Shown piece by piece: positions 1,984 to 48,171 of a stretch of DNA of 48,260 nucleotides. Position numbers and translations under genes: made by a program. The notes below the pieces were generated by a model, which was not told where the DNA came from, made no database searches, and saw only the letters and a list, made by a program, of their open reading frames with translations. The DNA is from an uncultured Armatimonadetes bacterium (GTDB lineage: Bacteria > Armatimonadota > Fimbriimonadia > Fimbriimonadales > GBS-DC). Location of the stretch: contig CAKZQI010000174.1 of NCBI GenBank assembly GCA_937139515.1, positions 1 through 48,260 of the forward strand, given 5' to 3'. The number at the start of each line of letters is the position of its first letter. Position 1 is the stretch's first letter.

Positions 1984-3108
1984 ATGCGACGCTTCGTATG
2001 GCTATGCGGTCTAATCTTGCTGTGGAGTGCGGTGTGGGCACAGCCTGCCGACCGAATTAACGCAGGCGATAAAGTGCGCATCACGGTGGAGGGGGACGCC
2101 TCGCTCTCGCGAGTCTACACGATTGATGCCCAGGGCAACCTCACGATGCCCCTGATCGGCAGCCTGCCCGCCAGCGGGCGCACCCCCACCGAACTGGCAA
2201 CCGAAATCGCCAAACGGCTCCGCGAGGGCAACTTCATCCGCGACCCAAAGGTCTCCGTTGAGATTGTGGAGCAGGCGAAAGCGCTCGTATCGGTGACGGG
2301 CGCTGTGCGTCGGGCGGGTGAGTTTGAACTGCGTGCAGGATGGCGATTGGCAGACGCCCTGCGTGAAGCCGAACCGACCAGCGTGGCAGACCTGAGTGCC
2401 GTACGACTGGAACGACTGGACGGCACACGCCAGACCATCAACCACCTCCGCTTCGTTCAGGAGGGTGATGAGGGAGGCAACCCGCTCCTGCAAGCGGGCG
2501 ACCGAATCTTTGTGCCCTTGTCGCCTGCGGGGCAAAATGTACTGGTGCTGGGAGCGGTGCGTTCTCCGGGAACTTACCCCATCCGTGAAGCGCGCACGCT
2601 CCTTGAGGCGTTGGGGCGCGCCGGCGGGACACTCCCGAATGCAGACACTGTCCAAGTCACCATCCGACGCGCCAACCAAGCCGAGCCGACGCGCATCAAC
2701 CTCAACACCCTCACAGGCGATATAGAACTCCAACCGGGCGACCAGATTACTGTGCCCTATCAGGCGACGCGCCAGTTCGTGGTGGTGCGCGGGGGCGTAC
2801 GCAACCCAGGCTTGGTCAACTATGTGGAGGGCATGACGCTCACCCAAGCGGTTGATGCAGCGGGCGGTCCAATCGCCGAGGCGCGCTTGGAGCGGGTGCT
2901 CATCTTGCGCCCCCAACCGCAGGGCAACCCGCGCCGTATCACGGTGAACCTGCTGGAGGTCGCTCAGGGCACGCGCCCTGATGAACTTATCCAACCGGGC
3001 GACACAGTGGAAGTACCTGCCATCACTCGGCGCACTACCTCGCCCGAAGAGCCGCTTCGGGTGGTGTGGTTGATCCTGAGCATCATCTTCCTCATCACAC
3101 GGCGCTAG
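1984..3108 (+). CDS. Polysaccharide export protein (Wza-like, Poly_export + SLBB repeats)
   Basis: N-terminal signal peptide (LILLWSAVWAQ). Poly_export-like segment GDKVRITVEGD...GNLTMPLIGSLPASGRTPTELATEIAKRL. Three SLBB-like units (GAVRRAGEF, GAVRSPGTY, GGVRNPGLV). C-terminal hydrophobic helix. Confidence 0.8.
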   Translation: MRRFVWLCGLILLWSAVWAQPADRINAGDKVRITVEGDASLSRVYTIDAQGNLTMPLIGSLPASGRTPTELATEIAKRLREGNFIRDPKVSVEIVEQAKALVSVTGAVRRAGEFELRAGWRLADALREAEPTSVADLSAVRLERLDGTRQTINHLRFVQEGDEGGNPLLQAGDRIFVPLSPAGQNVLVLGAVRSPGTYPIREARTLLEALGRAGGTLPNADTVQVTIRRANQAEPTRINLNTLTGDIELQPGDQITVPYQATRQFVVVRGGVRNPGLVNYVEGMTLTQAVDAAGGPIAEARLERVLILRPQPQGNPRRITVNLLEVAQGTRPDELIQPGDTVEVPAITRRTTSPEEPLRVVWLILSIIFLITRR

Positions 3109-3141
3109 TAAGGCTTCAGTGAGTTAGTTATCCTTTGGTTT

Positions 3142-3173
3142 CCCTCTCCCGTGGCGTCGGGGGAGGGTTTATT
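3142..3173 (+). terminator. Putative intrinsic terminator after the export gene
   Basis: The GC hairpin ccctctccc-gtggcgtc-gggggaggg is followed directly by tttatt, about 35 nt after the stop codon. It also belongs to the GC-hairpin repeat family. Confidence 0.45.
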
Positions 3174-3221
3174 CGCGAGGGCTACAATCAACCTCAGATA
3201 GGGGTACGCCTGATTGAGTTT

Positions 3222-3375
3222 CGGCTTGCAAAACGCCTAACCACTTTTAGACGCAGGCGGTAGCACTGAGCAGTAAGTTTCGCCTCAACCCGAACGCCCA
3301 CCTTGTCACCCTGAGCGAAGCGAAGGGTCTGAGCTTTGAGTGGCGTTGAGATTCTTCGCTTCGCTCAGAAGGACA
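3222..3375. repeat. Composite ~155-bp MITE/REP-like element (family 1, long form)
   Basis: Aligns along its length with 37024..37187: ttgagtt..ttgcaaaacgcct..ccacttttaga.gca.gcggtagcac..agcag...acccgaa..gcccacc.tgtcaccctgagcgaagcgaagggtct..gagattcttcgcttcgctcaga.gaca. The 3' part is an imperfect palindrome (ctgagcgaagcgaag / cttcgcttcgctcag). Confidence 0.85.
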
Positions 3376-3409
3376 GAAAGGGGGTGTCAGAATGACGATC
3401 CCCCCACCC

Positions 3410-3482
3410 TGTCACCCTGAGCGTCAGCGAAGGGGCCCTGTCTTGAGTTTCGCTGAGATTCTTCGCTTCGCTCAGAAGAACA
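3410..3482. repeat. Family 1 palindromic element (short form)
   Basis: tgtcaccctgagcgtcagcgaagg...gagattcttcgcttcgctcagaagaaca. It has the same arms as the other copies. Confidence 0.85.
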
Positions 3483-3580
3483 GTGGGAGTCGAGAAGGCT
3501 AACGAACGGGCATCAAAGTAGGGACGGGTTGGCATAATTTTGAACTCAAGGGATGTACTCTTGTCAGGAGAGGGTAGGGG

Positions 3581-5281
3581 GTGAGATCAACCCCGCAGTG
3601 TCGGAAGATAGGCAGAAAGAGCAAAACGAGGCGGATTCTTTCCTTCTCCAACCCTCTAGCCATAGGGTACAATAACCGTGTGAAACTTTTGCGCACTTTC
3701 GGATTGTGGCTCTTGGTGGTGTCCGTCGCTTCTGCCGACCGCACCACCTGGATGAGCCGCGCAGAAACCATCACCGCCAACAGCTTGCAAGCCCACTTAG
3801 AGTTCATCGCCTCTGACGCTCTGGAAGGTCGCGATACGCCCTCGCGCGGATTGGATATCGCTGGACTGTACATCGTGGCACACCTCAAACGCTGGGGGGT
3901 CAAGCCCGGAGGCGAGAACGGCACCTACTTCCAACCGCTCATCTACCGAACGGATACCCTCCGCCCCGACGAGACCCAATTGCGCATCGCTGGGCGCGAG
4001 TTCCGATACGGTACAGACTTCGTGGCGCGCCCTGTCGCACTCAACGGCTCCGCCCCGATGGTCTTCGTCGGCAACGGATGGTCAAACCCCCAAGCAGGTG
4101 TAGACCCCTACGCTAACCTTGAGGTGAAGGGCAAGGTGATGATTGTCGTGGCGGGCTATCCCCGCGAAGTGGTGCAGATGGGCTTAGAACGCGCGGGTGA
4201 GGTAGGGTGGCTCAGCCCCGAACAAAACGCTGAACAGCTGGGCGCGCTCGCTATCGTGCGGATCGATACAACCGATATGGAGCGCTTTGACCGCCTCGCA
4301 CGCCAGTGGTCAACTCGGCGAAGCGTGGAGGGATTGCAAACAACCACTCAAGTACCCACCCTCGTCGCCTCCATGAACTTGCTGAACCTGCTGTTCTCCG
4401 ACGAACCGCTCTCTGCCCAAGAGATTATCCGCCGAGCCGAGGCGCGGGAACCGCTCAGCTCGTTCGCCCTCAATCCGAACAAGAGCCTCCAAATTCAAAT
4501 CAGCGCCGAGACCAAACGCGAGAAAGCGAACACGGTTATCGGTATCGTTGAGGGTTCCGACCCTGTGCTGAAAAACGAGTATGTCTCGCTAGGCGCACAC
4601 TTAGACCATGTGGGCGTTGGACGCGCCGACGCGCAGGGCGACACCATCTACAACGGCGCTGACGACAACGGCTCCGGCTCGGTCGCCCTGCTTGGGATTG
4701 CCGAAGCGCTGGCGAAGGGACCTCGCCCCAAACGCTCGGTGCTGTTCCTTTGGTACGCGGGCGAGGAGAAGGGACTGTTAGGCTCTCGGCTCTTCGTGGA
4801 GCGACCCACCGTGCCGTTAGACCGTATCATCGTGAACATCAACTTAGATATGGTCGGGCGCAGTCTTCAGCAGGGCGACTCGAACCCGCGCAACCGCGAA
4901 CTCTCCAAGCCGAACGAGATTTATGTCATCGGTCCACGCACCGCCAGCCCCGACCTTGGCAAGGTGCTCAACGACATCAACGACAACTACCTACGCTTGA
5001 GCTTGAACCCGATGTACGATGCGTTGAACCACCCTGAACAGCTCTATTTCCGAAGCGACCACTATAGCTTCGTGAGCAAGGGTATTCCCGCCGTTTTCTT
5101 CTTCTCTGGGCTTCACGAGGACTATCACCGCACCACAGACCATGTGGACAAGATAGACTTTGAGAAGATGGAGAAGGTCTCACGCACCGTGTTCGGGCTG
5201 GCTTGGGAGTTAGCCGACGCGCCCGAACGCCCAGCACGCGTGAATGTGCAAGAGCTACTCAGTAAAATAACTACTCAATAA
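3581..5281 (+). CDS. M28 family metallo-aminopeptidase with PA domain (secreted)
   Basis: Zn-ligand motifs HLDHVG, GADDNGSGSVALLGIAEAL, WYAGEEKGLLGS, NLDMVGR and SDHYSF. A GTG at 3581 follows an aggaga SD. An alternative GTG at 3680 would start at the signal peptide VKLLRTFGLWLLVVSVASA. Confidence 0.85.
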   Translation: MRSTPQCRKIGRKSKTRRILSFSNPLAIGYNNRVKLLRTFGLWLLVVSVASADRTTWMSRAETITANSLQAHLEFIASDALEGRDTPSRGLDIAGLYIVAHLKRWGVKPGGENGTYFQPLIYRTDTLRPDETQLRIAGREFRYGTDFVARPVALNGSAPMVFVGNGWSNPQAGVDPYANLEVKGKVMIVVAGYPREVVQMGLERAGEVGWLSPEQNAEQLGALAIVRIDTTDMERFDRLARQWSTRRSVEGLQTTTQVPTLVASMNLLNLLFSDEPLSAQEIIRRAEAREPLSSFALNPNKSLQIQISAETKREKANTVIGIVEGSDPVLKNEYVSLGAHLDHVGVGRADAQGDTIYNGADDNGSGSVALLGIAEALAKGPRPKRSVLFLWYAGEEKGLLGSRLFVERPTVPLDRIIVNINLDMVGRSLQQGDSNPRNRELSKPNEIYVIGPRTASPDLGKVLNDINDNYLRLSLNPMYDALNHPEQLYFRSDHYSFVSKGIPAVFFFSGLHEDYHRTTDHVDKIDFEKMEKVSRTVFGLAWELADAPERPARVNVQELLSKITTQ

Positions 5282-5294
5282 TAAGGTGAGAGCT

Positions 5295-5813
5295 ATGAGC
5301 CAGACGACCCTGACGATGGAACAAGTTGCCGAGGCATTGGAGCGCGCTCTGGAGCGCTTTCACATCCCGTTTGACGCCGAGCGCTTCGCTTGGGAGGGAA
5401 TTATCCCGCGTGAGTACAAAGAGTACACTGGCGAAGCGCGCGGGATGGGCTGGCGCGGTATCACCCGCTTCAGCTTGGGACGCCCCCCGATGATTGACGC
5501 CAAGTTCGCTCTGCGCTACTTTGAGATTGAGCCTGAGGGCTACTCCAGCTTAGAAAAACACACCCATGTCCACCTTGTCGTGGCTTTGCGTGGGCAGGGG
5601 CGCGCACTGGTGGGCAACCGCGTGTTTGAACTCAAACCCCACGACATCGTCTATGTGCCCTCCAGCACGCCCCACCGTTGGCTCAACCCCTACAGCGAGC
5701 CGTTCGGTTTTCTGTGCGTCGTGGATGCCGACCGCGACCGCCCGCGCCCCGTCGCCGAGTCGGAATGGGAAGCCCTCAAAAACAATCCCGAAACAGCGCC
5801 CTATGTTTTTTAA
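5295..5813 (+). CDS. Cupin domain protein
   Basis: Cupin motifs EKHTHVHLVVALRG...ELKPHDIVYVPSSTPHRW. The ATG at 5295 is preceded by aaggtgag. Confidence 0.7.
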   Translation: MSQTTLTMEQVAEALERALERFHIPFDAERFAWEGIIPREYKEYTGEARGMGWRGITRFSLGRPPMIDAKFALRYFEIEPEGYSSLEKHTHVHLVVALRGQGRALVGNRVFELKPHDIVYVPSSTPHRWLNPYSEPFGFLCVVDADRDRPRPVAESEWEALKNNPETAPYVF

Positions 5814-5814
5814 C

Positions 5815-5844
5815 AAACGGCAGGGCTGATAAGCTCTGCCGTTT
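5815..5844 (+). terminator. Weak candidate terminator hairpin
   Basis: 9-bp stem aaacggcag / ctgccgttt with a 12-nt loop just after the cupin stop codon. The downstream tract is A-rich rather than U-rich. Confidence 0.3.
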
Positions 5845-5873
5845 CAAATAAAAAATACACGGAGGTATGACCG

Positions 5874-6254
5874 ATGAAACAAATCGTGTTGCTGTGTGGA
5901 GTTCTGCTACTTGCTGTAGCGTTCACTCAAGCCTACTACGACATCACTGTCGGAGGCAAGTTTATCTTCCGATTGCGAGCGGGAACGGCGACGATGTCGC
6001 TCCAAGAGCGTGCCCGCCAAGTGGAGGAACGCCTGATTGAGATTCTTGGACAACCGGTGCGCTCTGAGCAGATTACCCTGCGCGAAGTGAAGAAAGACTA
6101 TCAGTACGAAATCTATGTGCGCGGGCGACTGCTTATCACGGTACTGCCCGAAGATGGACGCGCCGAGAACACCACCGTAAGCCGAGTGGCGAACCGCTGG
6201 CTGGAACAACTGCGCAGAAACCTACCGCCCGTCAGCGCCAATCCACCTAACTAA
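5874..6254 (+). CDS. Hypothetical secreted protein
   Basis: ATG follows a cggagg SD. Signal peptide MKQIVLLCGVLLLAVAFTQA. No recognisable domain. Confidence 0.6.
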   Translation: MKQIVLLCGVLLLAVAFTQAYYDITVGGKFIFRLRAGTATMSLQERARQVEERLIEILGQPVRSEQITLREVKKDYQYEIYVRGRLLITVLPEDGRAENTTVSRVANRWLEQLRRNLPPVSANPPN

Positions 6255-6302
6255 GCCATAAGGCTTCTGCGAGCAATAATATCCACGGAGGATAACGCAA
6301 CG

Positions 6303-7490
6303 ATGCAAACCGCACTTCACGAGCCTTTGCGCTTAGAGGATTATGTAGTCCATCCAGAGCGGGGGTTCTTACCCCCGCAAGACCCGCTCCCACGCCTCCC
6401 CGACCCCTACTACGAGCCGTGGGAAGCAATTGCGCACGACCTGCCCAAACTGTTAGTGGCAGGACGCGTCCGCAAGGCTGTTAATCAGATACCCTTGCTC
6501 AGCACCGAACGGCTCCACACCGAGGCGGAGTGGCGTCGGGCGATGCTCATCCTATCTTACATCGGGCACGGGTATGTGTGGAATGGGGAGACTCCGCCCG
6601 AGTCCATCCCTGCGAACCTCGCCGGGCCCTGGTACGCCGTCAGCGAGCGGTTGGGGCGACCGCCAGTGCTGTCCTATGCCTCGTACGCTCTGGATAACTG
6701 GCGACGGTTTGACCCCAGCGAGCCAATCGCTTTGGGCAACATCGCCCTGCTCCAGAACTTCTTGGCGGGCTTAGACGAAGAGTGGTTCATCCTCATCCAT
6801 GTGGATATTGAGGCGCGTGCGAGCGATGCCCTGCGAGTCATCCCCCAAGCGTTGGAGCAAGCGGAACGGCGCGACCTGCGCGCCCTCACCCAATCGCTCC
6901 TACAGGTTGCCACGACTTTGGAGGCGATGTACGCCACGCTGGCACGCATGCCCGAAGCCTGCGACCCCTACATCTACTACAACCGCGTGCGCCCCTACAT
7001 TCACGGCTGGAAGAACAACCCCGCCCTCCCCAAAGGCTTAATCTACGAGGGGGTGGAAGCCTACAACGGACAGCCTCAAATGTTTCGGGGTGAGACGGGC
7101 GCGCAGAGCAGTATCGTCCCCACTCTGGATGGACTGCTCGGTATTGAACACGCCGAAGACCCGCTCCGAACCTACCTGATGGAGATGCGGTTCTATATGC
7201 CCCCTGCCCATCGGCGCTTCATCGAGGCGGTAGAGAATCGTTCCCAAGTGCGCCAGTGCGTGCTGGAAAGCGATGATGCCGACCTGCGCCACGCCTACAA
7301 CGCCTGCGTGGAGGGCGTGCATCGGTTCCGTGCGCTCCATCTGGAGTACGCGGCGCAGTACATCTACAAACAGCAAGCCAAGAGCGCCAAAAACCCCACC
7401 AAAGTCGGCACGGGGGGCACGCCATTTATGCGCTACCTCAAGAAACACCGCGACGAAAGCGAACAGCACAAGGTGCAGGTTGGAGGGTGA
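6303..7490 (+). CDS. Indoleamine 2,3-dioxygenase (IDO) family heme dioxygenase
   Basis: The C-terminal half parallels human IDO1 as I recall it: GETGAQSS (GGSAGQSS), YMPPAHRRFI (YMPPAHRNFL), LRHAYNACVEGVHRFRALHLEY ([22 protein letters not shown]), GTGGTPFMRYLK (GTGGTDLMNFLK). Confidence 0.85.
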   Translation: MQTALHEPLRLEDYVVHPERGFLPPQDPLPRLPDPYYEPWEAIAHDLPKLLVAGRVRKAVNQIPLLSTERLHTEAEWRRAMLILSYIGHGYVWNGETPPESIPANLAGPWYAVSERLGRPPVLSYASYALDNWRRFDPSEPIALGNIALLQNFLAGLDEEWFILIHVDIEARASDALRVIPQALEQAERRDLRALTQSLLQVATTLEAMYATLARMPEACDPYIYYNRVRPYIHGWKNNPALPKGLIYEGVEAYNGQPQMFRGETGAQSSIVPTLDGLLGIEHAEDPLRTYLMEMRFYMPPAHRRFIEAVENRSQVRQCVLESDDADLRHAYNACVEGVHRFRALHLEYAAQYIYKQQAKSAKNPTKVGTGGTPFMRYLKKHRDESEQHKVQVGG

Positions 7491-14072: not shown

Positions 14073-15083
14073 ATGTACCGTGCCAAAGCAACCGAACGCC
14101 CTGACCGCTATCGGGTGAAGGTGGATGAGTATATTTTCTATCGGCGCAACGGCTACCTGATTGTGCGCAACTTGCTGGCGCCTGACGAAGTGGACGAACT
14201 GCTCACTTTCGCCAGCGACCTACTGTATGGGCGTGAGCTCCTGCCTGGAATGGAGCCTCCCCCTGCCGATGCGACTGAGGAGCAGCTCTTCTCGCGCTTC
14301 AGCCGTATCCATATGCTCCATCGGGTGCATCCGATTGCCGAGCGCTATTTGCTTCATCCGCGCGTGTTGGATGTGCTGGAAGCGCTCATCGGACCCGATG
14401 TGCTGGCACTCCAGACGATGCTGTTTTTGAACCCGCCGGGCAAGGGCGGTCAGGGTTGGCATCAAGACGCCTACTACATCAGCACCTATCCTGACACCCT
14501 GATCGGGGCGTGGATTGCGCTCGACCGCGCCGACGAGCAGAACGGCTGCCTCTGGGTGGTGCCCGGTTCCCACTGCGAGCCAATCTACCCACCTCACGGT
14601 CTGCGCGGGATTATCCACGCCGACGGTGCGTTTGAAGACCTGCACGAGGTGGAGCATGTGAGCCACTTGGACGACGAGGTCAACACGCTCTCGCAGGTGG
14701 TGCGCAAGTATCCGCCAGCCATCCCTGTGGTGTTGGAGCCGGGCGATGTGGTGTTCTTTGAGGGGCATCTGCTCCATCGCTCGTATCCCAACCGCACCGC
14801 TGACCGCTTCCGCCGTGCGTTCGTGAGCCATTATTGCAACGCGCGTTCGTGGGTGCCTTGGAACCACGGGATGCCCTACGAGGGCGACTGTGCGAACGCT
14901 GAGCATATCTTGGCGCGTGGGCGCACGCACATGCCGTACGCACTGCCTGCTTTTGGCACGCTCTGCGCTGCCTTAGACGCTCAGCAGGAGCCTGCCAATA
15001 CCCCTGCTGAACCGACGCGCATGATGGGCATGGGCGACGAGATGATGGTCGTGGAGCAGGTGTTCACCGACGCCAAGCGTTAG
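14073..15083 (+). CDS. Phytanoyl-CoA dioxygenase (PhyH) family Fe(II)/2-oxoglutarate oxygenase
   Basis: HxD facial triad in GWHQDAYY, distal His in GHLLHRSYPNRT, and Arg in RRAF. aggtgg SD before the ATG. Confidence 0.8.
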   Translation: MYRAKATERPDRYRVKVDEYIFYRRNGYLIVRNLLAPDEVDELLTFASDLLYGRELLPGMEPPPADATEEQLFSRFSRIHMLHRVHPIAERYLLHPRVLDVLEALIGPDVLALQTMLFLNPPGKGGQGWHQDAYYISTYPDTLIGAWIALDRADEQNGCLWVVPGSHCEPIYPPHGLRGIIHADGAFEDLHEVEHVSHLDDEVNTLSQVVRKYPPAIPVVLEPGDVVFFEGHLLHRSYPNRTADRFRRAFVSHYCNARSWVPWNHGMPYEGDCANAEHILARGRTHMPYALPAFGTLCAALDAQQEPANTPAEPTRMMGMGDEMMVVEQVFTDAKR

Positions 15084-18000
15084 GGGCGTACCCCCGACTC
15101 GCTCTCGCTGACCACCACCGCGTGTGAGAGGTCTTCTGTGCCGTTGGCAATCGTACCGTTCAGGCGGGGCACATAGGGCACCACGCGCGTCACGCCCCCT
15201 GTCATCGAGATGCCCAGCCACTCATGCGCCACGGCACTGGTGATGGGGTTGTGGGTCACGATAAGTATCTGAGAATGCTGAGCCATCTCCTTGAGGTGGT
15301 CAGCGAACCGTTGGACATTGCGCCCGTCCAGCGCAGCGTCCACCTCGTCCAAAATCAAGATTGGCGTCGGGCGCACATCGGAGAAGGCGAAGAGCAAGGC
15401 GAGGGCGGTCAGGGCGCGCTCGCCCCCCGAAAGCAGTTCCAGACGCTGACGGCGCTTGCCACGCGGTTGCGCCTCCACCAGCACCCCCGCCGAGAGCGGG
15501 TCGCGCTCGTTGTCCAACAGCAGGTCTGCCGAACCGCCTTCAAACAGGCGCGTGAAGCGCTCTTGGAACGCCATACGCACCGCCTGATAGGTCTCCAAGA
15601 ACTTCTCGCGGGCGCGCTGGTCGATCTCGTGCAGGTTGCGCTCGAGCTGTTGGCAGGTGGTGAGGAGGTCGCATTGTTGGCGCTGGAGCGATTCGTAGCG
15701 TTCGGTGAGCCGTGCGTACTCGTCGGTGGCACCGAGGTTCACCTCGCCCATCTCGTTCAGCGCACGCCGGAGTTTCTCCATCTCAGACCGTGCGACGGGC
15801 GGGCGTTCGGGTAGGGGGGCAGTCGGTTCAGGTAGGGGTTCATCGGGGCATAGGCGCGCCCACGACTCTTGTAAGTCCACCAGCCGAACCTCCATCCGCG
15901 CCAGTTGGAGTTCCACCGTGCGCTCACGCTCCACGATGGTCTGAAGCTCGGCGCGCTGGGCACGGATGCGGTCGGTGATTTGGAAGCTCTGTTCCAGCAG
16001 GGTTTGGCGTTGGGCGCGTTTCTGTTCCAGTTGCAGGCGTGTGGCTTCGGCGCGCGCTTGGGTCTGTTCCAGCTCGGCTTGGAGCGCTTGGCGTTGTTGG
16101 ACAATCTGGGCGCACTCGGCTTCAATGGTGCGCATGCGCTCCTGCAGGGCACTTCGGCGCGACTGCACTTGACGGAGCTGGTTGCGCTCGTGCTGGAGAC
16201 GCCCTTGAAGCGTGTGTGCCTCACGCCGAGCCTGCTCATCCCGACTTTTCAGGTCAGAGAGTCTCTGAAGCCCCGATTGGTGCGCCTCTTCGGTGGCGCT
16301 CAGCTCGGCTTGGAGGGGTTCGGGGTTGGGCACTTCGGATTGCAGGGTGTGGGTGAGCCGTTCGTGTTCGGCGTGTAGGTGCACCAGTTGGTGTTGCAGT
16401 TGTTGCAGTTCGCGTTCGCACAGGCGACGCTCATTCTCGGCGTGGATGCGCGCTTGGGTCGCTTCTTGCAGGCGCGTGCGTGCGGTTTCCAGCGCTTGCA
16501 GATGTCGTTGGTAGGCTTGGTGCGCTTGTTCCAGTGCTTGCTCGGCTTGGGCGACGGTTTCTTGTGCCTGCTGAGCCTGCTGGCGGGCGTGGTCTAACTC
16601 GGCGCGCAGTTTGAGCAAGCTACTGCGCTCGTGTTTGGATTCGCCCCCTGTGATGGCGCCTGACACCTGTACCAGTTCGCCCCCTAAGGTGACGAATCGG
16701 CTGTAGGGGATAGGCTTGCCTGTGCGTCGCAAAGCTCGGAGCAGTTGCACCGCGTCCTCCAAGTTCTGCACGACCAGCACGCGTCCCAGTAGGTGATGCA
16801 CCACGGGCAGATAGCGCGCTTCAGTTTGAATCAGGTCGCTGGCGAGTCCGATGATACCGTAGCGATCGGCCTCACCCCCTTGCTCCCTCTCCGTAAACGG
16901 AGCGGGGGAATGCGCTGGTTCTTCCCCCTCTCTGCTTGCGGAGAGGGGGGCTGGGGGGGAGAGGTTTTCTGAGTTTGCCCTCACCCTTTGCCCCTCTCCC
17001 GACGCTGCGGGAGAGGGGAGTCGTTGGCTCCCTCCCTCTCCCGACGCTGCGGGAGAGGGAGGGCTGGGGTGGGTGAGGGCTAAAACAGACTTCAACAAAT
17101 CCAACGGCAAGAAGGTGAGCCGACCCGACTGCGTGCGCTTGAGCCACTCGACGCCGGCGTTGGCGTCCTTCTCGGTAGGCGTAATTAGCTCGTTCACGGC
17201 GCCACCCAAGGCGGCGCTGATTGCCTTCTGGAAAGGCTCTGGCACACTCAGCACCGCGCCCACAGGTATGAACTCGCCCTGCACCTCACCGCGCTGGACG
17301 GCTTGCAGGAGCGCCCGCACGGGTGGTATTGCGCCCTCCCCTGAGAGCAAGCTCGCCTCCAGCCCCTTCACGCGTGCTATCAGCGTCTCATATCGGCGCA
17401 CCGCTTCCTGAAGCGTGCGTTGCGATTGCTGGTGCTGGCGTTCGCTCTCGCGTGCTAATGCTTGCGCCTGCTCCAGTGCGGTTCGGGCGTGTGCCACCTG
17501 TTGGTGCGCCTCTTCAAAACGGCTCTGAGCGCTCTCCAGTTGGGCTTGAAGCGCCTCCAGTTGGCTTTGATACTCTGTCATCTGTTGCTGGAGCGTTTCC
17601 ACACGCTGGAGGTTCTGGGCATGCTCAGCTTGGCGCCACAGCGCCGATTGGTACGCTCGGTTCAGCTCGGCGCGCTTCTGGGCGAGCCTGTCCACCTCCG
17701 CCTGCGCCTGCTGAATTTGGGGCAGTCGTTGTTCGGTCTCGGCATTCAGGGCTTGGTATGCCGTTTCTAACTCATGCAGGGTGGCTTGGATGGCTACCTC
17801 ACGCTCGGTGAGGTTGGTTTGTTCGTCGCTAAGCGTCTGGCTCAGCTCGTGCAGGGTGCGTTCCCGCTCGTTGAGGGCGGACAGTTGCCCCGTGATGCGC
17901 TCTTCGCTACTCAGAAGCGCCTGCAACACCGAGCGCAGGGTGTCCATCTCCGACTCGAGGGCGCCAATCTGCGTGCCGTACTGGTCGGACTGGCGTTCTA

Positions 18001-18799
18001 GGTCTCCAATTAGCAGGTCAATCTGGATGACCTGTTGGCGCAAGTTTTCGCGCTCGGTGCTAAGCGCGCTCAGCGTCTGATAGGTTTGAAGCCACTCATA
18101 GGCGATGCGCTGGCGTTCCAGTTGGGCGAGTTGGTTTTGCAGTTCGCGGTAGACGAGGGCGCGCTCTGCTTGCTCACGCAGGGGTTCGCGCTGGCGGTCT
18201 AACTCGCGAAGCACATCTTCGACGCGTTGCAGGTGGATACGGGTGGCTTCCAAGTCGCGCAGGGTATCGCGTCGGCGGTTGCGGTAGAGGCTAACGCCTG
18301 CGACCTCTTCCAGCCACTTGCGTCGCTCTTCGGGATTGGCGCTCAGGAAGGCTTCGATTTCGCCTTGACCCACAATCGCATAGCCCCCGCGCCCCAGCCC
18401 CGTGCCTGCGAACAGGTCAGCAACATCCTTGAGGCGCGCAGGCGTTTTATTAATCCAGCACTCCCACTCGCCCGAGCGGTACAGGCGACGCACAATCTGC
18501 ACTTCGTCCGCCTCCAGGGGGAGCCAGCGCGTCTCGTTGTTGAACCAGAGGGCGACCTCGGCTAAGCCCATTGGCTTGTGGGTGCTGGAGCCCTTGAACA
18601 GCACTTCGGTGGGCGTAGAGGCGCGCAAGGTGCGCACATTCGCCTCGCCCAACGCCCACATAATCGCATCAATCAGATTGCTTTTGCCACAGCCGTTGGG
18701 ACCGACCACCGCGCTCAGCGGAGTCGTGAGGGCAATCTCCGTGCGTTGGGCGAAGGTCTTGAATCCGTTCAGCCGTATGCGTGTTAGTACCTGTGCCAT
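15080..18799 (-). CDS. smc: Chromosome partition protein Smc (with repeat-derived insertion in hinge)
   Basis: Walker A GPNGCGKSN, about 900 aa of Q/E/L/R coiled coil, hinge (GRLTFLPLD ... VTLGGELV..GAITGG), signature LSGGERALTALALLFA, Walker B ILILDEVDAALD. Confidence 0.95.
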   Translation of the reverse strand: MAQVLTRIRLNGFKTFAQRTEIALTTPLSAVVGPNGCGKSNLIDAIMWALGEANVRTLRASTPTEVLFKGSSTHKPMGLAEVALWFNNETRWLPLEADEVQIVRRLYRSGEWECWINKTPARLKDVADLFAGTGLGRGGYAIVGQGEIEAFLSANPEERRKWLEEVAGVSLYRNRRRDTLRDLEATRIHLQRVEDVLRELDRQREPLREQAERALVYRELQNQLAQLERQRIAYEWLQTYQTLSALSTERENLRQQVIQIDLLIGDLERQSDQYGTQIGALESEMDTLRSVLQALLSSEERITGQLSALNERERTLHELSQTLSDEQTNLTEREVAIQATLHELETAYQALNAETEQRLPQIQQAQAEVDRLAQKRAELNRAYQSALWRQAEHAQNLQRVETLQQQMTEYQSQLEALQAQLESAQSRFEEAHQQVAHARTALEQAQALARESERQHQQSQRTLQEAVRRYETLIARVKGLEASLLSGEGAIPPVRALLQAVQRGEVQGEFIPVGAVLSVPEPFQKAISAALGGAVNELITPTEKDANAGVEWLKRTQSGRLTFLPLDLLKSVLALTHPSPPSPAASGEGGSQRLPSPAASGEGQRVRANSENLSPPAPLSASREGEEPAHSPAPFTEREQGGEADRYGIIGLASDLIQTEARYLPVVHHLLGRVLVVQNLEDAVQLLRALRRTGKPIPYSRFVTLGGELVQVSGAITGGESKHERSSLLKLRAELDHARQQAQQAQETVAQAEQALEQAHQAYQRHLQALETARTRLQEATQARIHAENERRLCERELQQLQHQLVHLHAEHERLTHTLQSEVPNPEPLQAELSATEEAHQSGLQRLSDLKSRDEQARREAHTLQGRLQHERNQLRQVQSRRSALQERMRTIEAECAQIVQQRQALQAELEQTQARAEATRLQLEQKRAQRQTLLEQSFQITDRIRAQRAELQTIVERERTVELQLARMEVRLVDLQESWARLCPDEPLPEPTAPLPERPPVARSEMEKLRRALNEMGEVNLGATDEYARLTERYESLQRQQCDLLTTCQQLERNLHEIDQRAREKFLETYQAVRMAFQERFTRLFEGGSADLLLDNERDPLSAGVLVEAQPRGKRRQRLELLSGGERALTALALLFAFSDVRPTPILILDEVDAALDGRNVQRFADHLKEMAQHSQILIVTHNPITSAVAHEWLGISMTGGVTRVVPYVPRLNGTIANGTEDLSHAVVVSESESGVRP
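16870..17080. repeat. GC-hairpin repeat array (family 2), in frame inside smc
   Basis: Four modules, each a cctcaccc-type flank plus a short hairpin: ccctctccgtaaacggagcggggg, ccccctctctgcttgcggagagggggg, and cccctctcccgacgctgcgggagagggg twice. The same modules occur at 21811..21994. Confidence 0.9.
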
Positions 18800-21254: not shown

Positions 21255-22238
21255 CTACCTAAGTTGAGCGAGGAGGCGCACGGTATGCCTGCCGTTCTCG
21301 CGCCAGTCCTCGCTGGCATGTAAAATGAGAACGCTGGGGAGCAGAAGATGGATTAGCGAGCTCAGGTCAGTGACCCGTTGAGGCGAGGCGGGGCGCCCAA
21401 ACGCCTTCTGATGGGTGGGCGTGAATGCCTCCACAAGGAGCACTCCCTCAGGAGCAAGCCAACGGATGGCTCGCCGTATCAACTCGCTTGAGTAGTAGAA
21501 GCAGTTCACAATCAGGTTCACAGGATGCTCTGGGCACCACCCCGATTGCTCCAAGTCGGCACACACCCAGTGGGTAGGAGGGCTTTGGGGTGCGTAGCGG
21601 GCTTGGAGTTCCCGTCCGCGTTCAAGGGCGTCCGGGAGGCGGTCTACGGCGATGACCTGCCAACCGAGGTCAGCCAGATAGACTGCCTCGCGCCCACTGC
21701 CACAGCCGAGGTCTAACGCCCTTCCAGGGGGCAGGTGCTGAACGCTCTCTTGAAGGAATGCATTCGGTTCCCAGAGGCGGTAGGTGGGGTGAGCCTTCTC
21801 TTTTTGCTCTGCCTCTGCTCGGCTTGCAGAGAGGTTTTCAAAGTTTGCCCTCACCCCCGACCCTTCTCCCGACGCTGCGGGAGAGGGGAGTTCGACCTCA
21901 CCCCCTAGCCCCCTCTCCGTAAACGGAGAAGGGGAACTTGGTTCGCCCCCCTCTCTGCTTGCGGAGAGGGGGGACGGGGGGGTGAGGTTTTCTAGGGATT
22001 CTCCCTCCAACTCCGCCCATGCCACACGACGCCCCTGCTGAGAAAGCCACGCAAAAGCCTCCACCGCTTTGGGTGTGTCATTCAAAAGCAGGATTGTGTC
22101 GTGAGGAGGTGGCAGCTCGTGCTGGCGCTGGGTAAGGCTCTGCCAAGGGATATAGACCACCGCTTGCCCCACATACGGCTTTCCAACGCTCAAATAGCGC
22201 GTGGGCAACAACATCAAACAAAAGGATACCTGCCACAA
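21255..22238 (-). CDS. Class I SAM-dependent methyltransferase with N-terminal rhodanese-like region and repeat-derived linker
   Basis: Motif I ALDLGCGSGREAVYLADLGWQVIAVD and post-I/II motifs (VNLIVNCFYY, EGVLLVEAF). The N-terminal ~75 aa look rhodanese-like but have no Cys. The start codon is uncertain. Confidence 0.75.
   Translation of the reverse strand: MWQVSFCLMLLPTRYLSVGKPYVGQAVVYIPWQSLTQRQHELPPPHDTILLLNDTPKAVEAFAWLSQQGRRVAWAELEGESLENLTPPSPLSASREGGEPSSPSPFTERGLGGEVELPSPAASGEGSGVRANFENLSASRAEAEQKEKAHPTYRLWEPNAFLQESVQHLPPGRALDLGCGSGREAVYLADLGWQVIAVDRLPDALERGRELQARYAPQSPPTHWVCADLEQSGWCPEHPVNLIVNCFYYSSELIRRAIRWLAPEGVLLVEAFTPTHQKAFGRPASPQRVTDLSSLIHLLLPSVLILHASEDWRENGRHTVRLLAQLR
21811..21994. 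repeat. GC-hairpin repeat array (family 2), in frame inside the methyltransferase gene
   Basis: Modules cccttctcccgacgctgcgggagagggg, ccccctctccgtaaacggagaagggg and cccccctctctgcttgcggagagggggg, plus a degenerate copy (gcctctgctcggcttgcagagagg), with gaggttttc...gtttgccctcaccc flanks as in smc. Confidence 0.9.
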
Positions 22239-30106: not shown

Positions 30107-31126
30107 TTATCTGCGTCTGCGTTGACGAGCGCAGAGGATGCCCACTCCCGATGCCAACAGAAGCAGACTGCTTGGCTCAGGCACAGGCGTAATGGCGAAC
30201 AGCCCGCCGACATCGGTGAAACTGCCGTTCACCACCAGTACGCCGTTGCCCGAGAACGGCTCAAAACCGTTCCCATAGAAAGCGAGGCTCGTGGGGAAGG
30301 GGAACGCACCAGAGAACTGACCAAACGGCTGTGCGGAGGTTCCTCGCAGGAGCGTGAGCGTGCGCTGGGTGGTGGCAATCAGGTCGCCTTCGGTGTCAAA
30401 CACGAAACTCGCCAACCCAGAGCCGTTGCCCCCTGCTAAAGAGAGCGTGTCAATCAGGTTGGCTCCCACGATTGCGCCCGAGCCGTCGTACACAGGCTGG
30501 AAGCGGAACACCTGACCGGGGTTGCCTGCGAAGTTGGGGTCGTTCGTGTCGCCTGCGTAGATGGTTCCATTGCGGAAGGCTAAACCGCCCGCATAGCCGT
30601 TCCCGTAGGCACTAACCAGCTGGTTCACGGCGCCGTTCTGCACGGCGTAGAGGCGGTTGCTGTTCGGTCCATCTGCCCCAATCGCCAGCACTTGGCTTCC
30701 AGCAAGCGCAATCTCGGCTACATTCGGCAGACTACCGACGGGGGCGAGCAGGTTGGCCTGATTGGTGGTAAGGTTCCAGCGAAGCACGGTGTCCAAGTCG
30801 CCGTTTTCTGAGAAGAGCAGGGTGTCGTCATCTTGCCAGACCATTCCCCCGAAGAACTGCCAACTGCTTTGGGAGATTTGGGCGACCACTTGGCGGTTTT
30901 CAACGGCGATGCGGTTGTACACGGTGATACTCCCGCCACCACCAAACTGGTTCGTGGCAACGGCGAGCTTGCCTGAGGGGCTGATGGCGACCACACTGCC
31001 AGACAAGCCGAGCGAGAAGGTTCTGTAGCCGGTTGGGGGCGTGTAGCCCGACACTTGAGCGAGGGCGACCGTGAGGGTCGCAGTATAGAGCGCACCTAAG
31101 CCTAACAAAGTTTGTGTTGTTCGCAT
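30107..31126 (-). CDS. PEP-CTERM-anchored secreted protein, Gly-rich beta-repeat (propeller-like)
   Basis: ATG at 31126 lies 7 nt after AAAGGAGG. Signal peptide LLGLGALYTATLTVALAQ. C-terminal VPEPSSLLLLASGVGILCARQRRRR is the PEP-CTERM sorting signal. The body has repeated beta-strand/Gly-turn units. Confidence 0.85.
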   Translation of the reverse strand: MRTTQTLLGLGALYTATLTVALAQVSGYTPPTGYRTFSLGLSGSVVAISPSGKLAVATNQFGGGGSITVYNRIAVENRQVVAQISQSSWQFFGGMVWQDDDTLLFSENGDLDTVLRWNLTTNQANLLAPVGSLPNVAEIALAGSQVLAIGADGPNSNRLYAVQNGAVNQLVSAYGNGYAGGLAFRNGTIYAGDTNDPNFAGNPGQVFRFQPVYDGSGAIVGANLIDTLSLAGGNGSGLASFVFDTEGDLIATTQRTLTLLRGTSAQPFGQFSGAFPFPTSLAFYGNGFEPFSGNGVLVVNGSFTDVGGLFAITPVPEPSSLLLLASGVGILCARQRRRR

Positions 31127-31150
31127 ACCTGACCTCCTTTCGCGAGCGCG

Positions 31151-31182
31151 AAACAAAATCGCGCCCGACGCTTGTCAGGCGC
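31151..31182 (-). terminator. Intrinsic terminator (expression platform of the riboswitch)
   Basis: On the minus strand: GCGCCUGAC-AAGC-GUCGGGCGC (9 bp including one G-U pair), followed by GAUUUUGUUU, about 25 nt upstream of the ATG. Confidence 0.75.
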
Positions 31183-31372
31183 GTTCAGAGACGAGCGAAC
31201 CTTATGCTCACTCCGACCGCACCCTGTGCTCGCAGGGCGTCCCAATCGGGGACGCGGTCTCGCCGTGGCTGGGCATTCGGGCTTGTCCCCTCTAAGGAGG
31301 CTTACCGTTGCGGCACAGCGCCGGACTTGCACCGGACTTTCCCCACTCTTTCAGCCCCAGCACGACCTGGGG
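31183..31372 (-). promoter_or_regulatory. Cobalamin (B12) riboswitch-like aptamer
   Basis: On the minus strand: CCCCAG-GUCGUG-CUGGGG hairpin, then GGGGAAAGUCCGGUGCAAGUCCGGCGCUGUGCCGCAACGGUAAGCC, then ACAAGCCCGAAUGCCCAGCC. This matches the conserved GGGAA..GGUG..AA.UCC..GC.G..CGCAACGGUAA core and is close to the B12 box (AAGCCCGAAGACCUGCC in the E. coli btuB leader as I recall it). Confidence 0.7.
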
Positions 31373-32272: not shown

Positions 32273-33526
32273 ATGACCCGATACTTTATCTCGGTCTGCC
32301 TGCTCGGTTGGGCACTGAGCGGATGCGGTACAGGCGGAGTGGGCGCGCCCAGCAGCCAAAATCAGCCCATTCAACAGAGGACACCCGTGAAAGTAGAACC
32401 TCAAATTGTGGATGCGAACCTGCGTTTCGGACTTCGGCTCCTGAACGAGCTGGATGCAAATCGTGAGACGCCGAACCTGTTCTTCTCACCCCTCTCGGCA
32501 GGAATTGCGCTGAGTATGGTGCTGAACGGGGCAGGAGGCGAGACCCACACCGAAATTGCCCGCACACTGGGCTACACCAACCTGAACCAACAAACTCTCA
32601 ACGCCGAGAACGAGGGGCTCATCCAGCTCCTGCGCTCGCCCGACCCCGAAGCGACGGTGGATTTAGCGAACGGGCTGTGGGTGCAAAATGGGTTGAACTT
32701 GCGCCTTGAGTTCGTGCGCACCCTGCAAAGCCATTTCAACGCCGTCGCCCAGACGGTGGAATTTGGGGCTGACCCAGAGGGTTCGGCAACTCAAATCAAC
32801 GGATGGGTGAAAGAGCAGACGCGCGGGATGATTGACCGCCTCTTCCAACCCAACGATTTTGACGAACGAACCCGTGCGGTGCTGGTCAACACACTCTACT
32901 TCAAGGGCAAGTGGCAAAGTCCCTTCAACAAGGAGGCGACCCAAGACGAGGACTTCACCTTAGAGGATGGCGACACCAAGTCGGTGCCGATGATGCGCCA
33001 GTTCGGGAAGTTTCCCTATCTGAAGGGGCAGGGCTTCCAAGCGGTGGGGCTTGCGTATGGCAAGGGTGAGCTGATGTTCTACCTCTTTGTGCCTGACACA
33101 GTTCAGGGGCTGAGCGACCTGCGCCAGCGCCTGACCCACGAAAACTGGAAGCGGTGGATGGAGCGTTTCCGAATGACCGACGGCGATGTGGCGATGCCCC
33201 GCTTCAAAATCGACACGAAGTTCCTGCTGAACGCACCCCTCGCCAAGATGGGCATGCCGAGTGCCTTTGATGAAGGGCGGGCGAACTTTGAACGGATGGC
33301 GCACACACCGGGCAATCGCTTGTTCCTCCAAAAGGTGGTTCAGCGGGCAGTGGTGCAGGTAGACGAGGAGGGCACCGAAGCCGCCGCTGCGACGGGCGTT
33401 CAGGTGGGCATCACTTCGGCACCCGTCAACACCTTCACGGTGCGCGCCGACCGTCCGTTTCTGTTCGCGATTGTCCACCAGCCGACGGGCACGGTGCTGT
33501 TTATGGGGATTGTGCGTGAGCCGTAG
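32273..33526 (+). CDS. Serpin family protease inhibitor, lipoprotein
   Basis: Lipobox LLGWALSGC. Serpin motifs NLFFSPLSAGIALSMV and VLVNTLYFKGKWQSPF. Hinge and reactive-centre loop VDEEGTEAAAATGVQVGITSAP, then FTVRADRPFLFAIV and GTVLFMGIV. Confidence 0.9.
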   Translation: MTRYFISVCLLGWALSGCGTGGVGAPSSQNQPIQQRTPVKVEPQIVDANLRFGLRLLNELDANRETPNLFFSPLSAGIALSMVLNGAGGETHTEIARTLGYTNLNQQTLNAENEGLIQLLRSPDPEATVDLANGLWVQNGLNLRLEFVRTLQSHFNAVAQTVEFGADPEGSATQINGWVKEQTRGMIDRLFQPNDFDERTRAVLVNTLYFKGKWQSPFNKEATQDEDFTLEDGDTKSVPMMRQFGKFPYLKGQGFQAVGLAYGKGELMFYLFVPDTVQGLSDLRQRLTHENWKRWMERFRMTDGDVAMPRFKIDTKFLLNAPLAKMGMPSAFDEGRANFERMAHTPGNRLFLQKVVQRAVVQVDEEGTEAAAATGVQVGITSAPVNTFTVRADRPFLFAIVHQPTGTVLFMGIVREP

Positions 33527-33607: not shown

Positions 33608-33680
<73 letters not shown>

Positions 33681-33834
33681 CATCTCCCTCCTGTGCTTCT
33701 AACCTAATCCCTGTTGATACCCTTTAGTCACCTGAGACTTGGCATTTGCCCTCGTGGGTGAGTTTGTTAGAGGGGGATGCAAACGAATAAGGTGCATTCT
33801 GATTGGGTTAGGTTGTAGAAAGTCTGGCTCCCGG

Positions 33835-33910
33835 GGCAGGATTCGAACCTGCGACCTGGTGGTTAACAGCCACTCGCTCTGCCGACTGAGCTACCCGGGA
33901 ACCTTGTGCC
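33835..33910 (-). tRNA. tRNA-Asn (anticodon GUU)
   Basis: Minus strand TCCCGGGTAGCTCAGTCGGCAGAGCGAGTGGCTGTTAACCACCAGGTCGCAGGTTCGAATCCTGCCCCGGGAGCCA. The anticodon loop is CTGTTAA and CCA is encoded. Confidence 0.95.
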
Positions 33911-36884: not shown

Positions 36885-37000
36885 AGGATGAGGGTTTTTT
36901 GAACCCCTCACCCACCCCAACCCTCCCCCTAAATGCAGGGGGTAAAATGGTTCCCCACGCTGGCGGGGGGAACCTTAAGGAGGGGGCAAACAACCCCTCC
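36885..37000. repeat. GC-hairpin elements (family 2-like, divergent)
   Basis: cccctcacccaccccaa-ccctccccctaaatgcaggggg and ttccccacgctggcgggggg aa hairpins with cctcaccc-type flanks. Confidence 0.6.
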
Positions 37001-48039: not shown

Positions 48040-48171
48040 CCCCTGAGGGTGTTTGAAAAATCAAAGGACAGGCCCCCTAAGCCCCCTCTCCGTTTACATA
48101 GAGGGGGTTGGGGGTGAGGTCAATATAGATTTCTTAAACCCCCTCCGAACCCCTGAGGGTGTTCGAAAAAT
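48040..48171. repeat. 110-bp direct repeat flanking a family 2 hairpin
   Basis: cccctgagggtgtt(t/c)gaaaaat occurs at 48040 and 48150. Between them lies ccccctctccgtttacatagaggggg-ttgggggtgagg, a family 2 module in inverted orientation. Confidence 0.7.

Follow-up and report, generated by a model that had tools for sequence, protein, structure and literature searches.

The closest described counterparts of the repeats reported here are triplex motifs (TMs), known earlier as BoxC and as the PIT elements of Hoyne and Maher (cited in PMC4666352). In the passages of Holder 2015 (NAR 43:10126, PMC4666352) that define them, a TM consists of a pyrimidine block, a loop, a purine block, a spacer of 3 to 5 nt, and a G/T block that mirrors the purine block. 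The same passages place all of the TMs of Escherichia coli K-12 (23/23) in intergenic DNA with no strand bias, count five sites at which TMs stand as tandem inverted pairs, and link TMs to local genomic instability. Palindromic repeats that are read as protein have a precedent in the RPEs of Rickettsia, which, as passages of PMC10969869 and PMC3733652 relate from Ogata et al. 2000 (Science), are elements of ~100 to 150 bp found in the AT-rich, reduced genomes of one genus. REPs also occur inside genes, many of them replication or repair genes (PMC3733652).

We analyzed a window of 48,260 nucleotides, the whole stretch of DNA that begins above, in which a sequence-only reading had claimed that an array of hairpin modules lies in frame, without stops, in the hinge of smc. 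SMC is a near-universal chromosome-organizing ATPase, and its hinge controls dimerization and DNA handling. The product of the window's smc gene matched TIGR02168 (SMC_prok_B) as a full-length equivalog (839.7 bits against a cutoff of 567) as well as Pfam SMC_N and SMC_hinge, and it has the head, coiled-coil, and hinge architecture of bacterial SMC proteins. It differs by a single residue from the recorded SMC protein. The TIGR02168 and SMC_hinge matches are each split into two stretches, with breaks at aa ~571 and ~644, and between these breaks the translated ORF reads exactly ...ALTHPSPPSPAASGEGGSQRLPSPAASGEGQRVRANSENLSPPAPLSASREGEEPAHSPAPFTEREQGGEAD... with 0 stops. The gene and the parts of the array are as follows.

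15080..18799, minus strand: smc, an intact ORF of 1239 aa, open across the repeat array
16868..17082, minus strand: whole in-frame array in the hinge connector loop (aa ~574-643), two inverted TM pairs plus a linker, 215 bp
16870..16964, no strand assigned: unit A, an inverted TM pair (inverted repeat with 40-nt arms; TM finder; alignment to E. coli TMs)
16872-16906, minus strand: unit A minus-strand TM (TM finder)
16924-16964, plus strand: unit A plus-strand TM, with pyrimidine block CCCCCTCTC, purine block GAGAGGGGGG, linker CTG, and third block GGGGGGAGAGG; mirror perfect
16965..16976, no strand assigned: linker TTTTCTGAGTTT between units A and B (sequence)
16977..17082, no strand assigned: unit B, an inverted TM pair (repeat search, fold, TM finder, E. 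coli TM alignment)
16979-17017, minus strand: unit B minus-strand TM, CCCTCTCCC-GCAGCGTC-GGGAGAGGG-GCAAA-GGGTGAGGG
17030-17080, plus strand: unit B plus-strand TM, with purine block GGGAGAGGGAGGG and third block GGGTGGGTGAGGG; mirror with A to T changes

Sequence and ORF were thus as the sequence-only reading had described them, and the array resolves into four modules forming two inverted pairs. Its inverted repeats span 26 to 40 nt, the hairpin stems of the TMs are 9 to 14 bp long with 0 or 1 mismatch, and the outer stem of unit B is made of its two third blocks paired with each other. These patterns exceed expectation: CCTCTCC-N-GGAGAGG was observed twice against 0.01 expected, CCCTCTCC 13 times against 2.4 expected, and a triplex-motif finder returned 10 matches in the window, with 8 to 9 copies passing it, compared to ~0.2 in Markov-1 simulations. 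Folding predictions give -141.6 kcal/mol and z = -8.6 for the array as RNA and z = -7.4 for the array as DNA.

A third block rich in G/T(A) was present 1 to 6 nt past the purine block and was mirror symmetric to it, as in class II triplexes (G·G:C, A/T·A:T). When we aligned the TM blocks of the window directly with the TM_ECO sequences printed in PMC4666352, they matched, with GGGAGAGGG and GGGTGAGGG(C) in common with the E. coli TMs of Table 1, and units A and B both qualify as tandem inverted ("palindromic") TM pairs. A blastn search of unit B, a short and low-complexity query, against E. coli genomes gave no match. The anatomy of the elements and their identity can be read off these alignments: judged by their blocks, the modules are BoxC/PIT/TM intrastrand triplex motifs, each potentially able to fold into such a triplex. 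The likeness to BoxC/PIT/TM, as the passages of PMC4666352 portray them, covers the three-block anatomy, the nearly identical core blocks (CCCTCTCCC / GGGAGAGGG / GGGTGAGGG), the occurrence of both solitary units and tandem inverted pairs, a wide distribution that includes cyanobacteria, the lack of an associated transposase (here, among the ORFs of the window), and the hypervariability of the loci among close strains. In the same passages, however, the E. coli copies are all intergenic and unbiased, whereas the copies in the window lie mostly in frame in coding sequences; there is no strand bias in E. coli, whereas genic copies of a 20-mer variant are strand biased across phyla; the loops in the window are longer (6 to 10 nt); and the hosts Armatimonadota and Chloroflexota are unnamed in the passages on distribution.

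The comparison with RPEs, again as far as the passages cited above describe them, runs along other lines. Both are short palindromic repeats that sit in frame in conserved housekeeping genes whose orthologues lack them, both lengthen the encoded protein at fold-compatible positions, and both are read as tolerated selfish DNA. Here, the multicopy palindrome was found in frame in genes for SMC, a methyltransferase, PriA, PBP1C, and PKS, and its inserts occupy fold-compatible spots (the SMC connector; between the domains of the methyltransferase). The two families are nonetheless probably unrelated in sequence and are told apart by composition and architecture, since RPEs lack a triplex-type third block whereas the element in the window is multiphylum, nesting, and array forming. 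In-frame palindromic repeats are already known from the RPEs of Rickettsia, and the TM-type coding copies add to them.

Other families fit less well. RAYT-mobilized REPs and REPINs (PMC3116915) share an inverted-doublet organization from which a larger hairpin can form and a dispersed, high-copy, occasionally genic occurrence, but their GTAG/CGTC tag is missing from the window elements, whose mirror block in turn lacks a REP counterpart. Because no terminal GTAG or CGTC was seen in the aligned copies, CGTC occurring solely within the unit B loop, membership in the REP/RAYT family is unsupported. No transposase or RAYT was found among the ORFs of the window, and no target-site duplication was recognizable at the junctions in smc, in the methyltransferase gene, or in the related smc locus L227, so that a mobility mechanism is without support from any enzyme; the passages of Holder et al. 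report no mobilizing enzyme for the E. coli TMs either (PMC4666352). In a comparison with MITEs, the inverted ends correspond to the third blocks, and no parent IS was seen. The SDRs (small dispersed repeats) of Nostoc are reportedly very small hairpin repeats that insert into one another or into other repeats and for which no transposase is known, and the present elements resemble them as tiny Nostocales hairpins in nested arrays. We know of no description of SDRs as in-frame coding inserts. Rfam returned nothing at the gathering threshold, and its subthreshold matches (mraW at 28.7 bits against a cutoff of 50; many miRNA precursors) were set aside as generic long hairpins. A search of a collection of 5.8 billion proteins with the 71-aa insert peptide gave one match (E = 0.14) and revealed no other in-frame hosts. 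An intein, a domain insertion, and a terminator were ruled out; the peptide is of low complexity and is disordered in the structural model.

Additional copies of the modules occur elsewhere in the window. The sequence-only reading had placed three copies in intergenic DNA, and all three sites hold up, one as a perfect motif, one as motif-like sequence, and one as a hairpin only.

21255..22214, minus strand: SAM-dependent (TehB-like) methyltransferase gene with a second in-frame array (ORF; a called gene of 319 aa in the assembly L004)
21847..21989, minus strand: second array, made up of three TMs (unit A and one half of unit B); its in-frame reading is ...ENLTPPSPLSASREGGEPSSPSPFTERGLGGEVELPSPAASGEGSGVRA..., and its orientation and frame agree with those in smc
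48082..48117, plus strand: solitary intergenic TM, perfect motif, CCCCCTCTCC-GTTTACAT-AGAGGGGG-TT-GGGGGTGA
36905..36984, no strand assigned: degenerate intergenic motif-like copies, with third block GGGTGGGTGAGGG in common with unit B
3141..3167, plus strand: intergenic hairpin akin to the unit B hairpin, without a third block (sequence)

The methyltransferase array (21847-21989) is absent from the sequence-only reading. It sits between domains of the protein, with methyltransferase domains matched at aa 152-276, and the closest methyltransferase orthologues (~260 aa) do not have it. Its unit A is 86% identical to unit A of smc, and the GAGGTTTTC...AGTTTG context of the smc linker recurs in the DNA flanking this copy (21840-21995). 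Within the window, 7 of ~9 TM copies lie inside coding sequences and in frame.

Beyond the window, an exact 20-mer hairpin plus GGGGGTGAGGT was found in more than 106 genome stretches of Nostocales, Chloroflexota, and Fimbriimonadales, and 34 of 97 copies lay in long ORFs. The C-rich strand served as mRNA in 36 of 41 genic copies, compared to a null of 58% (p = 9e-5), although these counts include some orthologous, nonindependent copies, such as those in Nostoc PriA. Intergenic copies were oriented 16:13 relative to neighboring genes, which is no bias and which disfavors an effect of the insertion mechanism as the source of the genic bias. Genic copies across phyla were restricted to a few frames, and their Pfam-confirmed in-frame hosts include PriA, PBP1C, PKS, and others, with copies at linkers in unrelated proteins. 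The strand and the frame of genic copies are nonrandom. Phage were considered as a spreading vector and are unsupported, the 20-mer being present in only two viral contigs.

To place the insert in smc, we turned to orthologues. Most are 1174 aa long and have no insert, the site being empty in most of 120 homologues, and in an SMC that is 80% identical (P0002/L001) the point is occupied instead by a short loop rich in Pro. Where extra residues are present at the hinge site, they number +26 in the relative L003, +65 in the window, and +111 in L002, as nested elements. L002 and L003 are 99.3% identical upstream yet differ by a 255-bp indel at this site, and they share 84% identity within unit B; in L227, a single smc gene contains the same composite of ~170 nt in two places. 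Among the closer Fimbriimonadales, ~15 of ~64 SMCs have hinge-loop expansions that are repeat derived and differ from one another, and at least three unrelated repeat types contribute to them. Copies within one genome are 86% alike, compared to 76% at the orthologous position between species, and the element sequence is 77 to 81% identical between species, far above the conservation of synonymous sites (dS ~1.1). In these alignments, the insert is absent from orthologues and the site is hypervariable, bearing out both the lineage-specific insertion and the mobile or expanding repeat that had been suggested. On this evidence, the hinge loop is a recurrent and seemingly permissive insertion site across Fimbriimonadales. 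The array in relatives may go back either to one insertion in a common ancestor or to separate insertions at a favored target.

The insert maps onto the connector of 3 to 8 residues that joins the hinge halves in the solved structures 5H69 and 1GXL, consistent with the surface loop proposed at the outset. The AlphaFold (AF2) model gives both halves of the hinge scores above 95 and the insert a pLDDT of 48 to 76 with no secondary structure, and its best Foldseek matches are SMC hinges. The insert therefore appears, from this model, to form a disordered loop of ~70 residues, rich in Pro, Ser, Gly, and Glu, that leaves the hinge fold intact. If translated, as we infer, it would yield predicted peptides that include LPSPAASGEGQR and EGEEPAHSPAPFTER (tryptic) and ANSENLSPPAPLSASR.

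Taken together, we put the probability at roughly 80% that a TM-type array entered the connector loop of the SMC hinge, then grew and shrank, and is tolerated and translated in frame. Under this scenario, the 215-bp segment would comprise four BoxC/PIT/TM elements in two inverted pairs, inserted into the variable connector between the hinge halves in the ancestry of one subclade of Fimbriimonadales. Later growth and shrinkage would have come about through slippage, recombination, or additional insertions, including nested ones, an order of events that we reconstruct from the extant arrays. The array would be transcribed and translated within SMC, adding the disordered loop, and selection would tolerate it because the surface connector is permissive, the net length is divisible by three, and only the stop-free frame is used. 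The insert would then be close to neutral, or at least tolerated.

It is improbable, in our estimation, that the array is instead functional and positively kept, whether as a fast-changing disordered loop that adjusts how SMC dimerizes or contacts DNA, as an mRNA structure that makes ribosomes pause between the hinge halves, or as a DNA-level hot spot of recombination or instability that gives rise to variation. The repeated expansion of the hinge loop in related SMCs by unrelated repeat types, the very stable RNA structure, the conservation of the element far above that of synonymous sites, and the tie between TMs and local genomic instability drawn in passages of Holder 2015 (PMC4666352) all speak for such a role. 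However, most orthologues do without the insert, including the one that is 80% identical, and its content and length vary even between strains that are ~99% identical. Moreover, modules at the linkers of unrelated proteins fit passive tolerance, and recent insertion, or gene conversion from copy to copy, would account for the high conservation just as well.

Tolerated insertion also has to be set against an error of assembly, in which two pieces of smc were fused across a collapsed or chimeric repeat. The window comes from a MAG, and hairpin repeats of high GC content are difficult to assemble. The identity between L002 and L003, 99.3% upstream, is down to 94.3% precisely where the array lies, which could reflect chimerism. 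We nevertheless regard an artifact as very improbable. An identical insert is found in GCA_036725885.1 (L004), an assembly that matches the window at 99.987% identity across 23.7 kb, although the samples of the two assemblies may be related. Related arrays occupy this codon position in MAGs that other projects produced (L002, L003, and L227), and the frame is always preserved, with the used frame the only open one, where an artifact would have a chance of one in three.

The same reading-frame data bear on whether the insert is present in DNA yet missing from the mature protein, through removal from the mRNA or ribosomal bypassing. There is precedent in the mitochondria of Magnusiomyces, in which GC-rich palindromic "byp" inserts are skipped by ribosomal bypassing, and the hairpins here are very stable. 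Removal or bypassing would free the length and stop content of the insert from constraint, but the frame is kept in 6 of 6 arrays examined. Furthermore, in four arrays the used frame is the sole stop-free sense frame, the unused frames having 1 to 8 stops each (in the smc array, 0 stops in the used sense frame and 2 and 1 in the others), and genic copies across phyla are limited to a few frames. We therefore give this alternative very little weight.

Finally, it is hardly credible that this smc is a decaying or nonfunctional copy whose work is done by a second smc, MukBEF, or MksBEF, as its 1239 codons contain no stops or frameshifts, dN/dS is 0.10 to 0.13 on either flank of the insert at a dS of ~1 (~1.1), orthologue alignments show no variation in the residues of Walker A, Walker B, and the signature or in the hinge Gly residues, and insert-bearing orthologues persist in several lineages. 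Purifying selection acts on both flanks, and these patterns support a gene that stays open and probably functional despite the insert, as had been supposed.

These observations extend what is known of the family. Described as strictly intergenic in E. coli in the passages of PMC4666352, BoxC/PIT/TM elements elsewhere lie in frame in genes as a sizeable minority, and such genic TMs offer a handle on how repeats move and on whether non-B structures matter in vivo. We offer with considerable doubt the broader idea that TM/BoxC elements constitute a cross-phylum class of tiny, transposase-free mobile DNA, spreading via single-stranded hairpin or triplex or via RNA intermediates, whose coding copies recurrently seed disordered loops (the SMC hinge, PriA, PBPs) and whose strand bias reflects a triplex or G-rich constraint on transcription or translation. 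If this were true, in-frame copies that are polymorphic for presence or absence would be natural reporters of the insertion mechanism. For annotation, TM-type inserts account for many of the puzzling low-complexity stretches of the "PSPxxGEG" kind that proteins of MAGs contain. For SMC itself, the 70-residue loop and a dozen other repeat expansions of this loop within a single bacterial order mark a naturally permissive site in the protein, one that could serve for engineering or tagging.

The reading we favor, at a probability of about 0.8, is that TM/BoxC elements (intrastrand triplex motifs) would enter the connector of the SMC hinge, that selection would spare only in-frame, stop-free copies located in loops, and that the array would then change fast through nested insertion, slippage or recombination to give an SMC with a disordered loop. 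The host gene is unambiguously a bacterial smc (TIGR02168, 839.7 bits). The genome is metagenome-assembled and belongs to Fimbriimonadales (Armatimonadota).

15080..18799, minus strand: smc open reading frame (ORF), 1239 codons, matching TIGR02168, SMC_N and SMC_hinge
16868-17082, inside the smc ORF: dense GC-rich hairpin array, recognized from sequence and inverted repeats

The ORF is continuous through the array, which is read in frame as exactly the peptide quoted in the sequence-only reading. TIGR02168 and the Pfam hinge profile each matched the protein in two pieces, with the break at amino acids (aa) ~571 and ~644, and ~70 residues are therefore extra relative to the SMC family. The repeats are not due to chance: the hairpin pattern occurs twice in the window against 0.01 expected, the octamer CCCTCTCC 13 times against 2.4, and the array folds at -141.6 kcal/mol (z = -8.6) as RNA and with z = -7.4 as DNA. 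An adaptive role for such mRNA structure, or for the loop itself, seems unlikely. Over 23.7 kb, 3 substitutions separate the window from a second public assembly (GCA_036725885.1), whose insert is identical; we consider an assembly artifact highly improbable.

On the gene strand, the array runs from unit B through a linker of 12 to 17 nt to unit A, each unit being an inverted pair of modules. A module consists of a pyrimidine arm, a loop of 6 to 10 nt, a complementary purine arm and, 3 to 5 nt further on, a G/T-rich block mirroring that arm. Two examples are as follows.

16924-16964: CCCCCTCTC..GAGAGGGGGG-CTG-GGGGGGAGAGG
17030-17080: GGGAGAGGGAGGG-CTG-GGGTGGGTGAGGG

A finder written for this three-block pattern, with Markov-1 simulations as the null, gave 10 matches in the window compared to ~0.2 in the simulations, including the following.

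In smc: four matches
21847-21989: three matches
48082: one perfect intergenic match
36951: one weak match

A literature text search for the third block brought up Holder et al. 2015 (PMC4666352), and, judged by sequence, the modules are BoxC/PIT/"TM" intrastrand triplex motifs; E. coli copies such as CCCTCTCCCTGTGGGAGAGGGCCGGGGTGAGGGC match those of the window almost letter for letter in all three blocks. The element family itself is known. As described by Holder et al., TMs form a stable triplex in vitro as single-stranded DNA, with none detected in vivo, are found in more than 260 genomes, with cyanobacteria rich in copies, occur singly or as tandem inverted pairs without an associated transposase, and in E. 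coli K-12 are "always located intergenically" (PMC4666352). Among the ORFs of the window, we found no transposase.

Conservation indicates that the smc gene works. The N-terminal and C-terminal parts gave dN/dS values of 0.10 to 0.13 against both insert-free and insert-bearing orthologues, and Walker A, the signature, Walker B, the H-loop and the hinge glycines are invariant in the SMC alignments; a nonfunctional gene copy is very hard to credit. Sequence mapping onto solved hinge structures puts the insert between residues 124/128 of 5H69 and 105/113 of 1GXL, in a short connector joining two pseudo-symmetric hinge halves. An AlphaFold2 model of aa 478-752, from a 33-sequence alignment, reached a mean pLDDT of 85.7, with both hinge halves above 95 and the insert disordered (48 to 76, without secondary structure), and its best Foldseek matches were SMC hinges (E = 2e-15). 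The proposed position in a hinge surface loop thus held up. In four arrays (in smc of the window, in smc of L002 and L003, two strains ~99% identical to each other, and in a methyltransferase gene of the window), the frame in use is the sole stop-free sense frame, the others having 1 to 8 stops. This favors translation of the insert over its being skipped; it is probably translated, with only a very slight chance that it is not.

Most SMC orthologues have 1174 aa, and an 80%-identical one (P0002) lacks the array, having at that position a 13-residue Pro-rich loop, as in more distant relatives; the suspected lineage-specific insertion was thus supported. The smc of L003 carries unit B alone (+26 aa), that of the window B and A (+65 aa), and that of L002 B, A and further elements (+111 aa): a further triplex-type hairpin lodged within a hairpin loop, a hairpin of a different family lodged within unit A, and half a unit more. 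L002 and L003 share 99.3% identity over 11.7 kb upstream, differ by a 255-bp indel at the array and share 84% within unit B, in agreement with the hypervariability of TM loci among E. coli strains that PMC4666352 reports. These length steps, nested elements and indel bear out the idea of a mobile or expanding repeat. Unit A of the window smc is 86% identical to that of the methyltransferase gene in the same genome, compared to only 76% for its L002 counterpart at the orthologous position. Unit identities among smc, the methyltransferase gene and L002/L003 are all far above that of synonymous sites (dS ~1.1), which makes it likely that the elements inserted recently or that gene conversion acted between copies. 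For the elements at the smc site, a single ancestral event and repeated insertion fit the data alike.

L002 and L003 are assemblies of the same species. Their identity is 99.3% as far as the array, 94.3% in the remainder of smc and 97.8% downstream of that; the position of the array is also that of a recombination breakpoint or of a chimeric join in the assembly. The window has the different hairpin family (GTCACCCTGAGCGAAGCGAAGGGTC...GATTCTTCGCTTCGCTCAGAATGAC) too, at 38651-39038 and 3300-3480, as a 101-bp tandem array (3.9 copies) along with two dispersed copies, and its copy in the L002 smc array is read in frame as SMC peptide.

The window holds a second in-frame array.

21255-22214, minus strand: gene for a TehB-like SAM methyltransferase, with the array at 21847-21989

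This array comprises unit A and half of unit B, shares its orientation and frame with the smc array, and lies between the N-terminal domain and the methyltransferase domain. It is missing from the closest orthologues (~260 aa); in others, TM-like inserts occupy a second, different site nearby. Further features of the window were noted.

31266-31357, minus strand: AdoCbl-II (cobalamin) riboswitch (40.2 bits, cut-off 36.5), upstream of a 349-aa ORF (30107-31156, minus) with no Pfam match
32273-33526, plus strand: full-length bacterial serpin (Pfam Serpin, E = 7e-116)
33608-33680 (plus) and 33828-33900 (minus): two tRNA genes after the serpin
42725-42765: GGAGGG-type short tandem repeat at the 3' end of a class A PBP gene (42584-44974, minus)

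By its sequence, the GGAGGG repeat should encode a Pro-rich C-terminal tail of the PBP; the three-block finder detected no triplex motif in it.

Across genomes, we scanned for one exact 20-mer hairpin variant, with one genome per species. Among the matches listed, it occurred in more than 106 stretches, from Nostocales, Chloroflexota, Fimbriimonadales and a few other groups, within a conserved core of ~45 nt (hairpin + nnn + GGGGGTGAGGT); only 2 viral contigs carried it. Of the 97 copies among these matches that could be evaluated, 34 were flanked on both sides by 80 or more stop-free codons. Pfam-confirmed hosts include PriA (Nostoc), PBP1C, polyketide synthase KS-AT linkers, UDP-GlcNAc 2-epimerase and restriction enzymes. 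The C-rich strand was the mRNA strand in 36 genic copies, read as PLSASREG or PSPQAERG, and the opposite strand in 5, again among the matches listed (p = 9e-5 against a null of 58:42 from stop-free frames, some copies being orthologous). Intergenic copies between codirectional ORFs showed no strand bias (16:13 in these matches), so insertion preference is disfavored as the cause; the bias is rather a filter acting on expressed copies. Orientation is thus nonrandom for genic copies of the 20-mer, but the unit B hairpin, which is part of both members of a pair, is unbiased (9:9).

Nostoc and relatives (L006, L008, L017, L018, L022, L091 and L095) carry the motif in frame in the stretch of PriA that separates the DEAD helicase domain from the Cys-rich region; several Nostocales species appear to have it at orthologous positions, which points to an old, retained insertion. 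In L089, an MmeI-family restriction-modification ORF (3393-7061, minus) has two triplex motifs, at aa ~544 and ~719, flanking a DUF559 (Vsr-like endonuclease) domain at aa 592-697; it could be an in-frame, repeat-flanked cassette or two genes joined by read-through.

In-frame palindromic repeats have precedents in Rickettsia RPEs and in REPs located within genes (PMC10969869, PMC3733652). In the literature as far as searchable, we found no description of in-frame coding copies of the TM family, of their strand and frame bias, or of an SMC-hinge hot spot. Two further smc genes also carry repeats in the hinge loop.

L227 (GCA_037445735.1), 3001-6942: smc with a ~170-nt composite (two TM pairs) present twice
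L228 (JGI 3300045922), 3001-6915: smc whose hinge loop has about twelve tandem 36-nt hairpin repeats

The L227 protein (52% identity) has the composite, in frame, at two places, the hinge loop and aa ~1004; no target-site duplication was recognizable at these junctions or at those of the smc and methyltransferase arrays. The L228 repeats (ACGGACAAGAATGTCCGTGCCACAGAAACCCACAAC, read as TDKNVRATETHN repeats) belong to a family unrelated to triplex motifs. Among 120 SMC homologues, the hinge loop measures 10 to 19 aa in ~100 and at least 21 aa in ~15, all of the latter inside the closer Fimbriimonadales group. Given these repeated loop expansions, the hinge connector is a recurrent permissive site, or possibly a preferred insertion target.
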